In this document: positions 5,932 to 40,326 of the stretch, piece after piece
How positions within the stretch are numbered: position 1 is the first letter of the stretch
How the letters are laid out: each line of letters starts with the position of its first letter
Source: Candidatus Shapirobacteria bacterium
GTDB lineage: Bacteria; Patescibacteriota; Microgenomatia; UBA12405
Assembly: GCA_037142555.1 (NCBI GenBank)
Contig: JBAXAJ010000006.1
Coordinates: 1-44,129, forward strand
Direction: 5' to 3'
DNA: 44,129 bases
Translations under genes and position numbers: made by a program
Notes under the pieces: generated by a model
Database searches by the model: none
Told to the model about the DNA's origin: nothing
What the model saw: the letters and a program-made list of their open reading frames with translations, nothing else

Positions 5932-7074
5932 ATGAATAAACCACAAAAAATTGCTATCGTTCAAGATTATATTAAAGAATTTGGCGGAGCCGAATCAGTC
6001 CTTGAAACTCTATCAGAAATTTTCCCTGATGCCCCAATTTTCACCACTCTCTATAAACCTGAATTTTTAGGTCCACACCAAGATCGACTAGAAAAAAAAT
6101 GGTCAAATCGAATTCATCAAAGTTTTTTCCAATATATTCCTTTTGCCCACAAAATAATCAGCCCTCTTCGTCTTTTGTCACCACTAGCTTTTAAATCTTT
6201 CGATTTTTCTGCTTTTGATTTAATCATCATTTCCGCCACTGGTGCCTATTTCCCAAATTTAATCAACAAAGGCAAAGCAAAATTAATTTGTTATTGTCAC
6301 ACTCCACCTCGCTATCTCTATGGTCTTCCAACTGCCAGAAACTTCACTAAAAATAAAATTATTTATGCCATAATCCAAGTTTTGAATCACTTTCTAAGAA
6401 TTCTCGATTTTAAATCATCTCAAAATGTTGATCAATTCATTGCTAATTCTCAAACCACTGCCGCCCGTATTAAAAAATTCTATCGTCGTGATGCCATCAT
6501 CATCAATCCACCAGTCGATCTACCTGAAATTAGAAATTTGAAATTAGAAATTAAACCTTATTTCTTAACTGGTGGCCGTCTTGCTAGAGCCAAACGCTAT
6601 GATATTGCTATTCAAGCCTGTAACAAATTAGGTTTAAAACTTAAAATTTTTGGTCGTGATTTTGCCAATTATAGTCAAGAACTTAAAGATTTAGCTGGCT
6701 TGTCCGCCATAGCTTCAGCGAAGGCGGAGCCAACTATTGAATTCTTAGGTGAAGTTGATCAAAAACAAAAAGAAATTCTCTATTCTCAAGCCAAAGCTTT
6801 CATTTTTTGTTCAGATAATGAAGATTTTGGGATTGTTCCAGTTGAATCAATGGCCTATGGTTGCCCAGTCATCGCTTACAAGAGTGGAGGAGTCACTGAA
6901 ACAGTCGTCGAAGGCAAAACAGGCGTCTTTTTTGATGATTTAACCCCAGATTCTTGTGCCGCTGCAATCAAAAAATTTCAAAAATCAAAAATAAAATCAG
7001 AAGATTGCGTCTCTCGTGCCCAATATTTTTCCAAAGAAAAATTTATTTCTAAAATTAAAAAACTAATCTCTTAA
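5932..7074 (+). CDS. Glycosyltransferase family 4 (GT-B fold)
   Basis: GGAE, YCHTPPRYLY, EDFGIVPVESMAYGCPVIA motifs. Confidence 0.92.
   Translation: MNKPQKIAIVQDYIKEFGGAESVLETLSEIFPDAPIFTTLYKPEFLGPHQDRLEKKWSNRIHQSFFQYIPFAHKIISPLRLLSPLAFKSFDFSAFDLIIISATGAYFPNLINKGKAKLICYCHTPPRYLYGLPTARNFTKNKIIYAIIQVLNHFLRILDFKSSQNVDQFIANSQTTAARIKKFYRRDAIIINPPVDLPEIRNLKLEIKPYFLTGGRLARAKRYDIAIQACNKLGLKLKIFGRDFANYSQELKDLAGLSAIASAKAEPTIEFLGEVDQKQKEILYSQAKAFIFCSDNEDFGIVPVESMAYGCPVIAYKSGGVTETVVEGKTGVFFDDLTPDSCAAAIKKFQKSKIKSEDCVSRAQYFSKEKFISKIKKLIS
6526..6553. repeat. Tandem heptamer (GAAATTA/T) x4 inside the GT4 coding sequence
   Basis: gaaatta gaaattt gaaatta gaaatta, translated as EIRNLKLEI. Confidence 0.75.
6699..6728. 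repeat. 30-bp GC-rich palindromic mini-element inserted in frame
   Basis: cttgTCCGCCatagcttcagcgaaGGCGGA; removing it restores L-A-G-P-T; related copy at 32089-32119. Confidence 0.85.
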
Positions 7075-31461: not shown

Positions 31462-31920
31462 TTATTTTTTAATATCTTTAAATTGTCCCAATATTTTCTC
31501 TTTTAAAATGCCTGTTTCTATTAATATTTTATAACCAGAATCTTTAGCTAAATCTCTCATTAATATTTTTCTAGGCCGTAAAAAATTAGATAAATCATCT
31601 CTTGTTAAACCAACAACTACCTTTGGAATTTTTGCTTGGAAAAGGGCTGCGGCACACATAGAACAAGGTTCATTGGTGCAATAAATTGTACAGTCATTAA
31701 GTTCATTTCTTTTTAATTTTTTACATGCTTTTCTTAAAGCAAGCATTTCAGCATGATCAGTTACATCACCACCAGTGATATTTTCACATTTTCCTTTTCC
31801 AACGACTTTATTACCACAAACAACAATTACACCAAAAGGGAGATCACCAAGTTTTTTAGCTATTTTTGCTTGTTCTAAAGCTAATTCCATATATTTTTCT
31901 GTTATCAACTTTGATTTCAT
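31462..31920 (-). CDS. Zn-dependent nucleoside/nucleobase deaminase (TadA/guanine deaminase-like)
   Basis: PFG, HAE, EPCSMC. Confidence 0.88.
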   Translation of the reverse strand: MKSKLITEKYMELALEQAKIAKKLGDLPFGVIVVCGNKVVGKGKCENITGGDVTDHAEMLALRKACKKLKRNELNDCTIYCTNEPCSMCAAALFQAKIPKVVVGLTRDDLSNFLRPRKILMRDLAKDSGYKILIETGILKEKILGQFKDIKK

Positions 31921-31976
31921 AGTCAATTCATTTTATCAATAAAAATATTGAAATTACTCGAACAATACACGAAGTG

Positions 31977-32061
31977 CGGAGAGGGAGAGATTCGAACTCT
32001 CGGTGCCTTGCGACACACACGCTTTCCAAGCGTGCGCACTAGACCACTATGCGACCCCTCC
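31977..32061 (-). tRNA. tRNA-Ser(GGA), CCA not encoded
   Basis: GGAGGGG/CCTCTCC acceptor stem, CACGC-TTGGAAA-GCGTG, long variable arm, TTCGAAT. Confidence 0.96.
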
Positions 32062-32074
32062 TAATTTTCAAATT

Positions 32075-32137
32075 GCACTAGACCACTACTTGTCCGTCCG
32101 TAGCCTTGGCGAAGGAGGGTGCGACCCCTCCTAATTT
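32075..32137 (-). repeat. Duplicated tRNA-Ser 5' fragment interrupted by a 31-bp palindromic element
   Basis: 32075-32088 plus 32120-32137 equals 32036-32067; insert cttgtccgtccgtagccttggcgaaggaggg. Confidence 0.9.
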
Positions 32138-32153
32138 GTAGGCTTATTATATC

Positions 32154-32420
32154 TTATTTATCTCCATCTTCCATATGAGGCTCAGATATTCGCCACATTT
32201 CATCCACTATTTCTGCCGCTTCTCGAATCTTTTCTGCTGCTCTAACCCCCAATTCACTTAATTTTGGTCTATCTTTTACCTTATCTTTTATCGCTTGAAA
32301 TTCTAAACCATCAGACATTCCATCCAAAAACTTTCCTAGACTATCATATCTTAAAAGACTAGCATCAACCCCAGTTTTTTGAGGACTTTCACCATCAATT
32401 AATTCTTTTTTGTGTGCCAT
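32154..32420 (-). CDS. Small hypothetical protein
   Basis: 88-aa ORF with LRYD.L...D..K.RPKL...MWRISEPHM. Confidence 0.7.
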   Translation of the reverse strand: MAHKKELIDGESPQKTGVDASLLRYDSLGKFLDGMSDGLEFQAIKDKVKDRPKLSELGVRAAEKIREAAEIVDEMWRISEPHMEDGDK

Positions 32421-32441
32421 TTATATTAATAAATTAATATG

Positions 32442-32487
32442 TCTCCCTTTCGTTAAGGGGAGATTCCGATTTATCGGGAGAGGGGTT
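32442..32487. repeat. Composite REP-like palindrome overlapping the NUDIX stop codon
   Basis: TCTCCCTT-tcgtt-AAGGGGAGA followed by TTCCGATTTATCGGGA and GAGGGG. Confidence 0.65.
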
Positions 32488-32977
32488 TGAGTTTATCCAA
32501 TTCTGCCTTTGCCTTCTTTAACAACAACTTTTCGCTATCAAAAGCCAATTTTCCCAGTGCTTCTTCAAAACTAAACCAACTTCTTTCCAACACCATCTCT
32601 GTATCATAATATTTCAAATTGCTTTGTTCAACATATTCCATCAAAAAGAAAGTCACTTTTTTAATGATTTTTCGTCTTTGTTCCTTATCCCAAATTATAT
32701 AATCATTTGAACCTAACTTAGTCACCACTCTAGCTTTAACTCGACCTTCTTCTTCCACTTCTCTAAGTGCTGCTTCTTTCAAAAACTCTCTTTCTTTCAA
32801 ATGGCCCTTTGGAAATTTAAAAATTGAACCGTTATCTTCTCTTCTTTTATTTTTTTGGCTACTAAAATTAGAAATAGTTCTAATCATCAACCAAAAAATC
32901 TTGTTATTCTCAATTTTGTAGACCAATCCACCCGCCGATCTCTCATCATACAATTTTTCTTCAGCTTTAATAACCAT
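32471..32977 (-). CDS. NUDIX hydrolase (Ap4A hydrolase-like)
   Basis: SAGGLVY, FPKGHLKEREFLKEAALREVEEEG. Confidence 0.9.
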   Translation of the reverse strand: MVIKAEEKLYDERSAGGLVYKIENNKIFWLMIRTISNFSSQKNKRREDNGSIFKFPKGHLKEREFLKEAALREVEEEGRVKARVVTKLGSNDYIIWDKEQRRKIIKKVTFFLMEYVEQSNLKYYDTEMVLERSWFSFEEALGKLAFDSEKLLLKKAKAELDKLKPLSR

Positions 32978-39879: not shown

Positions 39880-40140
39880 TTACTTCATTTCAAAATATCT
39901 TTCAAGCATCTTGTGAATACTTTTAAAACCCCAACCTGATTTTAAATAAACTTCTCTTCTTTTAGCATCAATTCTGTTTAAAAAAGCTTCGTAATGGATT
40001 AATTCATAGGGGATAAATGGTTTAGTAGCTTTATTTAACCCTTTATTATGTCTATCAAACCTTTTTCTTAAGTCTGAACTATAACCAATGTACAAACTAT
40101 TATTTTTTAAACTCTTAAGTACATAAGTGTAATAAAACAT
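39880..40140 (-). CDS. Small stand-alone GIY-YIG endonuclease
   Basis: YTYVLKS...LYIGYSSDLRKRF..HN.G...A..RE..LKSG. Confidence 0.92.
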   Translation of the reverse strand: MFYYTYVLKSLKNNSLYIGYSSDLRKRFDRHNKGLNKATKPFIPYELIHYEAFLNRIDAKRREVYLKSGWGFKSIHKMLERYFEMK

Positions 40141-40170: not shown

Positions 40171-40243
40171 GCGGGACGTATAATTTGCTTCGCAAATTGA
40201 CGTTCCAGCAACGTTTAAATCACTTTGTGATTTATTACGTTGC
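40171..40243. repeat. Two abutting long hairpins between the tRNA 3' end and the GIY-YIG gene
   Basis: GGGACGT-at-AATTTGC-ttc-GCAAATT-g-ACGTTCC and GCAACGT-t-TAAATCAC-ttt-GTGATTTA-tt-ACGTTGC. Confidence 0.8.
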
Positions 40244-40326
40244 GGTAGGAGAGGGAATTGAACCCCCATGCCCTTGCGAGCGTCCCATTTCGAATGGGGT
40301 GCCTTACCAATTCGGCGCATCCTACC
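40243..40326 (-). tRNA. tRNA-Ser(CGA), CCA not encoded
   Basis: GGTAGGA/TCCTACC acceptor stem, loop TTCGAAA, long variable arm, TTCAATT. Confidence 0.93.

Follow-up and report, generated by a model that had tools for sequence, protein, structure and literature searches.

Hairpin-split 5' duplicates of tRNA genes in a Candidatus Shapirobacteria genome, with a mobile mini-hairpin at tRNA-Ser(GGA)

Contig JBAXAJ010000006.1 of the Candidatus Shapirobacteria bacterium assembly GCA_037142555.1 was analyzed over a stretch of 44,129 nucleotides (nt), referred to here as the window, which carries the sole tRNA-Ser(GGA) gene of the genome. Immediately upstream of this intact gene lies a second, partial copy of its own 5' part (hereafter the decoy), and the decoy is interrupted by a 31-nt hairpin-like element that we designate X. 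Read on the minus strand, the order is TATAAT, 8 nt, decoy piece a, X, decoy piece b, 7 nt, AAATTA and the complete tRNA. In what follows, G000 is the genome under study, C with a number one of its contigs, G with a number a compared genome, and L with a number a compared locus. The features are:

31976..32061, minus strand: intact tRNA-Ser(GGA), the only Ser-GGA gene of the genome (ARAGORN; Rfam RF00005 tRNA, 54.9 bits)
32062..32067, minus strand: leader AAATTA, 6 nt, abutting the intact tRNA; second copy of the leader, within the 18-nt exact repeat
32068..32074, minus strand: AT-rich spacer or filler of 7 nt between the decoy and the second leader copy (sequence reading)
32075..32088, minus strand: decoy piece b, which repeats tRNA positions 13-26 without change (14/14 identical to 32036-32049)
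32089..32119, minus strand: X, a 31-nt GC-rich imperfect palindrome and member of a mobile mini-hairpin family (family searches, folds, stem covariation)
32120..32137, minus strand: decoy piece a, in which the leader and tRNA positions 1-12 recur exactly (18/18 identical to 32050-32067)
32146..32151, minus strand: TATAAT, a -10-like box 14 nt before the first tRNA base of the decoy (reading and comparison with relatives)

Together, pieces a and b reproduce tRNA positions 1-26 plus six leader bases without a mismatch (32 nt, 32/32 identical), and the 13 nt between piece b and the intact tRNA hold no GIY-YIG nuclease gene. The 7-nt spacer at 32068-32074 occupies the position that such genes take in the cassettes that carry an open reading frame (ORF), as at tRNA-Glu(CTC) on C3 and at L004. 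An earlier reading of the DNA letters by themselves (the sequence-only reading) had reported that 32 nt of the tRNA 5' part and leader recur upstream, broken exactly between ...gaccacta and tgcgacc... with 31 nt between, and these coordinates were confirmed. Its description of the insert as "the same palindromic element" stands as far as family membership is concerned, but X (32089-32119) is not an identical copy of another element, as the window holds no second copy within 3 mismatches. Similarly, palindromy holds for the family, in which the outer stem is kept, but the tRNA-Ser copy alone is weak and imperfect (-3.8 kcal/mol, z -0.75). On the tRNA strand, X starts with CCCTCC, which is able to pair with GGAGGG of the decoy. 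The TATAAT at 32146-32151 is homologous to the box preceding the plain tRNA in relatives; a promoter and terminator scan of 31850-32550 with a simple two-hexamer promoter model returned 0 sites and thus did not predict it. No integrase gene was found near the locus, at which the 5' part of the tRNA is duplicated and the copies lie 7 nt apart.

A structure of this kind could be produced in silico by joining two strain variants or organisms at a shared tRNA sequence, as the sequence-only reading had cautioned, and the genome is indeed a metagenome bin of 23 contigs. The possibility was examined with Logan contigs of four public runs (X1 to X4) rather than with reads. A contig of 8353 nt from run X1 (depth 29.9), which may be the source sample, covered 32017-32600 with zero differences, and a second X1 contig at a similar depth (27.4) covered 31600-32045. 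The X1 contigs break inside the tRNA (32017-32045), where the depth jumps about tenfold, up to 341, because many organisms share those tRNA bases. In run X2, a different sample, a contig of 151 nt covered 32100-32250, again with no difference, and runs X3 and X4 covered only the tRNA part. One further X2 contig joins 32055 to 32167 via 35 other letters, as a plain promoter-tRNA junction would; it was set aside since it shows 7 differences in 49 letters and probably derives from another organism. The break in the contigs and the uncertain identity of X1 with the source sample speak for an artefact. However, no assembly k-mer is as short as the repeats of 14 and 18 nt, which rules out a false join of the graph, the X1 contig crosses the structure at the depth of its flank, the second sample contains part of it, and the same layout occurs at other tRNA genes and in other genomes. 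An artefact is therefore highly improbable. Chance is excluded by the recurrence of the layout together with the absence of any match to the 31-mer of X in 100 shuffles. The hairpin-split decoy is real.

The locus was then compared with 11 tRNA-Ser(GGA) loci of the same genus. Nine of the 11 are plain, with TATAAT, 12-14 nt and the tRNA, and no decoy; the plain loci include L009, whose tRNA is 98% identical to that of G000, and L005, which has a leader core in common with G000. At L197, a different hairpin of 29 nt splits an ORF-less decoy at the same site (12/13). At L004 (in G017), the decoy is interrupted at 17/18 by other hairpins, and the GIY-YIG gene behind it extends into the tRNA. Given the nine plain loci, piece a occupies the former start of the gene, and 70 nt are new, i.e., X, the 32-nt duplicate, and the 7-nt filler. 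Consistent with this, piece a keeps the ancestral distance to the -10 box. By this comparison, the tRNA-Ser(GGA) locus of G000 is in the derived state. The sequence-only reading had also argued that empty and filled sites define the ends of the element and reveal no target duplication; this was borne out at the tRNA locus and, independently, by a 30-nt insertion at 6700-6729 described below.

The same arrangement recurs at other tRNA genes. G000 comprises 776,848 bases in 23 contigs (32% GC) with 44 tRNA genes called by ARAGORN, and each was scanned for pieces of its own 5' part of at least 9 nt in the 700 nt upstream, other tRNA genes being left out. In seven of the 44, a copy of the gene's own 5' part, interrupted by a hairpin, stands between the promoter and the intact gene. 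X and a spacer of 11-17 nt with no ORF remnant are present at five of the seven. The seven are:

tRNA-Ser(GGA): decoy split at 12/13 by X, ORF-less
tRNA-Glu(TTC): decoy split at 11/12 by X, ORF-less
tRNA-Ala(TGC): decoy split at 3/4 by X, ORF-less
tRNA-Val(GAC): decoy split at 11/12 by X in opposite orientation, one base missing
tRNA-Ile(GAT): decoy split at 19/20 by a 40-nt variant of X
tRNA-Glu(CTC), on C3: decoy with another hairpin and a small GIY-YIG gene
tRNA-Trp, on C9: decoy with other hairpins and a small GIY-YIG gene

Thus, the recurrent layout is a promoter, piece a, a hairpin, piece b, a spacer or a small GIY-YIG nuclease gene, and the intact tRNA. Uninterrupted 5' decoys were found at none of the 44 tRNA genes of G000, nor among the other loci that were read, and five further upstream matches in the scan proved to be neighboring tRNA genes. 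The decoy of tRNA-Trp (C9:1-460) retains tRNA bases 1-10, 25-37, and 55-64, with two 17-nt GC hairpins in place of the D arm and of the stretch 38-54; decoy, GIY-YIG gene, and tRNA are followed there by another partial copy at the end of the contig. At the start of C5 (C5:1-110), two tandem units of piece a, X and piece b belong to a tRNA-Val(CAC) that is itself missing from the assembly.

A second way of combining X with a tRNA gene was seen at tRNA-Ser(TGA) (C9:7583-7618), where X overlaps the gene such that its GGAGGG end forms tRNA bases 1-6, and an older GGAGGG is left 24 nt upstream; an insertion at 6/7 of this kind needs no duplicate. The same overlap occurs in 8 loci of other genomes, 7 of which were flagged automatically. 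In addition, an X-like copy lies 3 nt ahead of a tRNA-Met in G000. Elsewhere in the genus, X-split decoys occur at tRNA-Val(CAC) (G010, G020, and G013) and at another tRNA of G020 (L035). Beyond the genus, the order has them at Arg-GCG, Gln-CTG (two copies of X at one locus), Val-CAC, Val-TAC, Asn, Lys (X together with another hairpin), and Ser-TGA, and at Ile-GAT, where the site is the identical 19/20. Some decoys hold more than one hairpin: two copies of X at L228, X and another hairpin at L218, and two hairpins of 30 nt at Val-CAC of G017. The lengths of the duplicates vary from 14 to 32 nt, and the spacers of ORF-less modules range from 3 to ~50 nt. At tRNA-Ser(GGA) of L004 (G017) and tRNA-Val(CAC) of L017 (G020), the allele of the decoy differs from that of the adjacent functional tRNA, as though the module, or else the 5' part of the gene, stemmed from a different strain.

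X is not confined to tRNA genes. A sibling copy lies within the window:

6700..6729, minus strand: sibling of X, inserted in frame into a GT4 glycosyltransferase gene (5932-7074, plus strand), to which it adds exactly 30 nt or 10 codons (nhmmer, alignments, Pfam)

Among 11 relatives, this site is filled in 1, carries a diverged 30-nt fill at the same place in 3, and is empty in 7, and comparison with the empty site (GGC|CCA) reveals no duplication. The two copies of the window have 24 invariant columns of 31. Profile searches of G000 returned 9 copies of X at E<0.01 and ~20 weaker ones, and by eye further X-like copies lie inside ORFs (C3:23457-23487, C10:889-919, C10:7028-7058, and C13:598-628). 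Copies are present in 20 of the 38 genomes of the genus, and an exact pattern matched 34 of the 132 genomes of the order, with G000 at the top (7 matches; next highest, 4) and a reversed control pattern at 0. In a scan of one genome per species, the X pattern was found in at least 121 stretches, and the matches listed come, according to the taxon labels of the records, from Alpha- and Gammaproteobacteria, Bacteroidota, Verrucomicrobiota, Planctomycetota, Nitrospirota, Acidobacteriota, Patescibacteria, and others. At several of these cross-phylum loci, X lies right after the 3' end of a tRNA and before a run of T. The 150 nt upstream of called tRNA genes, a zone that makes up 0.85% of G000, contained 4 of the 9 copies in G000 (profile, E<0.01), a count that is partly circular since the profile and patterns were built from four tRNA-linked copies that it includes. 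The corresponding figures were 4/28 copies in loci of the genus, 13/39 in those of the order, and 7/88 in those across phyla, the loci of genus and order having been found with a 22-nt pattern that excludes the flanks.

The outer stem of X is paired at 4/4 positions in 131 of 143 parsed copies, and its types (CCCT/AGGG, 78; TCCT/AGGA, 40; GCCT/AGGC, 5; and others) show that it is maintained by compensatory changes, as would be expected of a hairpin under selection. No Rfam family was found for X or for the decoy, either at the gathering cut-off or at E<=10. Insertion into the centers of local palindromes was considered and rejected, as the flank complementarity of 166 copies was 3.03 of 6 compared to 3.12 +/- 0.07 when shuffled, a few striking individual cases notwithstanding (L019 and L065), and no fixed target tetranucleotide is visible beside X. 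Taken together, the copies show X to be a mobile hairpin element of 30-32 nt that inserts precisely and without target duplication. It resembles small palindromic elements of the REP, MITE, and RPE kind in its many dispersed copies with conserved ends and in its presence or absence at the same site among relatives (the tRNA-Ser and glycosyltransferase sites). However, classical MITEs are defined by a target-site duplication, which X lacks at both sites with a known empty state; in this respect, it is closer to REP/IS200-like or nuclease-linked hairpins than to cut-and-paste MITEs.

The enzyme candidates in G000 are four small, Ssn-like GIY-YIG nucleases and one IS200/IS605-type Y1 transposase. 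PF01541 has 5 matches in G000, 4 of which are small ORFs of 80-90 codons adjoining tRNA genes, and small GIY-YIG genes occur in 37 of the 38 genomes of the genus. One of them lies in the window (39880-40140, minus strand; 86 amino acids [aa], 52.7 bits), ~100 nt downstream of tRNA-Ser(CGA) (40242-40326), with two AT-rich hairpins between and no tRNA behind the gene, a placement unlike the decoy layout. Across phyla, a short GIY-YIG-like motif, by which such proximity was judged, was found no more than 250 nt from X in 4 of 80 loci. The transposase gene is intact (C17:1-700, 93 bits), and its 3' hairpin has a 12-nt core in common with X without being a copy of X. Y1 transposase genes occur in 3 of the 38 genomes of the genus and 34 of the 132 of the order. 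At L225 (G119:C1:18439-18860), a RAYT-like Y1 transposase ORF (an open frame of 155 aa) is followed by two copies of X in the same orientation.

Several known systems resemble parts of this picture. Rickettsia palindromic elements (RPE), reportedly described by Ogata and colleagues in 2000, are said to insert in frame in protein genes. They resemble X as small, palindromic, selfish elements that are tolerated in essential genes, the sibling of X adding 10 codons, and they differ from it in size, being ~100-150 bp compared to 30-32 nt. We know of no tRNA 5' duplication described for RPEs. Elements with a tyrosine integrase that insert at tRNA genes duplicate the 3' part of the tRNA, flank kilobases of DNA, and encode the integrase. 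They likewise leave a partial duplicate beside an intact tRNA; here, in contrast, the 5' part is duplicated, the insert measures 70 nt, and no integrase gene lies nearby. REP elements and the IS200/IS605 Y1 (HUH) and RAYT systems, which are cited in PMC11893778, share with X hairpins that move single-stranded and insert without target duplication, but X has no fixed target tetranucleotide and no genome-level association with Y1.

A further parallel is provided by Ssn, a set of site-specific single-stranded DNA (ssDNA) nucleases (GIY-YIG, cd10448) that are accompanied by hairpin repeats termed NTS/SRM (Chenal et al., 2025; PMC11893778). In that system, the nuclease cleaves ssDNA beside the hairpin. 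As presented in that paper, those repeats form hairpins of 20-50 nt in many copies per genome, comparable to the 31 nt of X with its 4/4 stem in 131/143 copies, small single-domain GIY-YIG genes stand in the same genomes, and the layout of repeat, gene, and repeat is like that of a mobile element. X differs in lying outside the degenerate SRM search sequence given there (0 matches on both strands of G000), and the SRM repeats flank the ssn gene while no GIY-YIG gene is present at tRNA-Ser(GGA) or abuts X in G000. Since the main text of the paper does not contain the word "tRNA", 5' decoys of tRNA genes are not part of the Ssn system as described there. Within G000, the GIY-YIG cassette at Glu-CTC has the same split-decoy layout as Ser-GGA, which has no nuclease gene, and a hairpin of another family. 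The mobile ORF elements (mORFs) of fungal mitochondria and free-standing homing endonucleases such as SegB, a GIY-YIG nuclease in a tRNA cluster of phage T4 (PMC2330249), offer the likeness of a selfish insert that regenerates the displaced part of a host gene and leaves the old part as a remnant. In those cases, however, the 3' ends of protein genes or phage genomes are concerned and the nuclease is, as far as is known, always carried; here it is the 5' end of a bacterial tRNA, without a gene. A literature search, judged by titles and the starts of abstracts, returned no description of hairpin-split tRNA 5' duplicates or of X.

The surroundings of the tRNA-Ser(GGA) locus comprise genes for a deaminase and a NUDIX protein and an ORF of 88 aa without a Pfam family (32154-32420, minus strand), which has the NUDIX gene on one side and the tRNA promoter on the other. 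The ~430-nt stretch holding this ORF is variable as well, since only ~40 nt separate the end of the NUDIX gene from the tRNA in most relatives. Two adjacent AT/GC hairpins at 32419-32488, between that gene and the ORF, represent a different palindromic repeat family, which has dozens of matches in genomes of the genus and three elsewhere in G000. In relatives, X sometimes sits inside repeats of this type (L019 and L020).

From these observations, we consider it somewhat probable that the tRNA-Ser(GGA) locus is an ORF-less, i.e., non-autonomous, member of the recurrent tRNA-nested hairpin layout, with X as a mobile mini-hairpin sitting in the decoy. The sequence-only reading had left it open whether the element hit the tRNA, with a local duplication preserving an intact copy, or hit a pre-existing duplicate. 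That pair of options was supported, and since every decoy found is interrupted by a hairpin, the first, in which the two events are coupled, is favored. Where a tRNA gene is essential and present only once, a hairpin inserted in its 5' part would survive only if the 5' end were rebuilt in the same event, either from the element's own end, as may have happened at Ser-TGA, or from a duplicate made by the same repair. A possible route would start from a break whose two ends are both extended along the sister copy and then joined, with some filler bases added at the junction; the product would read piece a, X, piece b, filler, and whole gene. Repair of this type, in which copying precedes end joining, would account better than a fixed staggered cut for the 7-nt filler and for duplicates whose ends vary (14-32 nt). 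The enzyme that mobilizes X would act in trans, and decoys would later gather more hairpins.

A long transcript from the old promoter might then be trimmed by RNase P, and we propose that, with the decoy leader removed in this way, the cell would lose nothing and the element would be tolerated. In the predicted fold of the pre-tRNA, the cloverleaf is free and the leader folds on itself (z -2.6), with CCCTCC of X pairing with GGAGGG of the decoy. A candidate RNase P RNA in G000 scored 90.5 bits (E 1e-28), which is below the 100-bit cut-off. A wider proposal, which we put forward only tentatively and which may well be wrong, is that X is the non-autonomous half of a cross-phylum class of structure-specific ssDNA elements that colonize the first ~30 bases of tRNA genes and regenerate the 5' end; decoys would be their footprints and landing pads, Ssn-like GIY-YIG nucleases or a Y1 transposase would drive them in trans, and the element at Ser(UGA) of G000 and related genomes would encode the first six bases of this essential tRNA.

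A number of results weigh against the locus being a non-autonomous member of such a system. With respect to the nuclease, GIY-YIG genes stand beside X at 0/9 copies in G000 and 0/30 X loci of the genus; conversely, an X-type hairpin occurs in 0/30 GIY-YIG loci of the genus (X profile, 0 matches below E 0.7), and the published SRM motif of Ssn nucleases has 0 matches on either strand of the whole of G000. With respect to the transposase, X and Y1 occur together in 8/132 genomes of the order compared to 8.8 expected (34 and 34 positive), i.e., with no association, and a RAYT-like motif is near X in 1/142 loci, such that the link, consisting of one 12-nt core and one RAYT-like gene, is anecdotal. 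No intermediate of the insertion and duplication steps was found, and the steps themselves are reconstructed from their products. The mismatch between decoy and tRNA at L004 and L017 is explained by import of the complete module from a different strain no less well than by formation in place, and decoys with a foreign allele suggest that recombination may also carry entire modules from strain to strain. Arrangements common to several genera (Val-CAC, Ile-GAT, and Ser-TGA) could reflect retention for a function, and the partial circularity of the G000 count near tRNA genes reduces its weight.

Three other explanations deserve consideration. The locus could be the remnant of a full GIY-YIG cassette from which the gene was later deleted, leaving a spacer of 7-13 nt. 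Homing-endonuclease genes are known to degenerate after fixation, an intact version of 80-90 codons stands at the orthologous tRNA-Ser(GGA) of L004, GIY-YIG versions are also present at tRNA-Glu(CTC) and tRNA-Trp of G000, and the spread of ORF-less spacers from 3 to ~50 nt is what decay would be expected to leave. However, the five X-type spacers in G000 are only 11-17 nt long without an ORF remnant, the Ser-GGA decoy is still identical to the tRNA at 32/32 positions, and the hairpin of X is absent from all 30 GIY-YIG loci of the genus, so that decay of a cassette seems unlikely. Alternatively, two unrelated steps may have been involved, in that the 5' end was duplicated by slippage or unequal exchange and X later entered the dispensable copy, insertions into the real gene being lethal. 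The extra hairpins in some decoys (two copies of X at L228, X and a hairpin at L218, two 30-nt hairpins at Val-CAC of G017) and the many types of site that X enters, coding genes included, would agree with such a history. Yet decoys free of a hairpin number 0/44 in G000 and were absent from the other loci read, slippage would not leave a 7-nt filler, and the decoy still equals the gene in sequence, which allows little time for a second hit; we doubt, for these reasons, that the two steps were separate.

Finally, decoy and hairpin might be kept because they serve the tRNA transcript as a processing signal, a protective 5' hairpin, or an insulator. The same arrangement across genomes and genera for Val-CAC, Ile-GAT, and Ser-TGA, the maintenance of the hairpin by compensatory changes, the predicted self-folding leader that leaves the cloverleaf free, and the terminator-like position of X in other phyla, after tRNA 3' ends and before T runs, are all compatible with a function of this kind. 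On the other hand, the position of the insertion (3/4, 11/12, 12/13, and 19/20) and its orientation vary between tRNA genes, the same element sits in frame within protein genes, the arrangement is absent at 9/11 of the relatives' tRNA-Ser(GGA) loci, including that of L009 with its 98% identical tRNA, and the scan of 31850-32550 revealed no terminator-like site at the locus. A functional leader is thus quite improbable, and the reading of the locus as a non-autonomous, tRNA-nested hairpin module is the one that we prefer.

What appears to be new is the ORF-less form of the decoy, present at five loci of one genome, the occurrence of X across phyla as a 30-nt element that also inserts in frame within protein genes, and the Ser-TGA case, where part of the tRNA is contributed by the element. 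For the annotation of such genomes, it follows that tRNA callers will encounter stray 5' halves, and contigs break at decoy modules, as at the ends of C5 and C9. The near identity of X in many phyla points to a conserved protein partner, and such a partner could serve as a structure-specific ssDNA tool, like the Ssn nucleases. In genomes of 0.6-1 Mb, tRNA genes are single-copy and essential, and about one-sixth of those in G000 have selfish inserts in their transcribed 5' ends; in proteins, insertion of a 30-nt hairpin adds 10 codons. If one mechanism makes the layout, it would represent a new route for mobile DNA into essential genes without an intron or an integrase, and selfish DNA seems in this way to settle in essential genes without breaking them.

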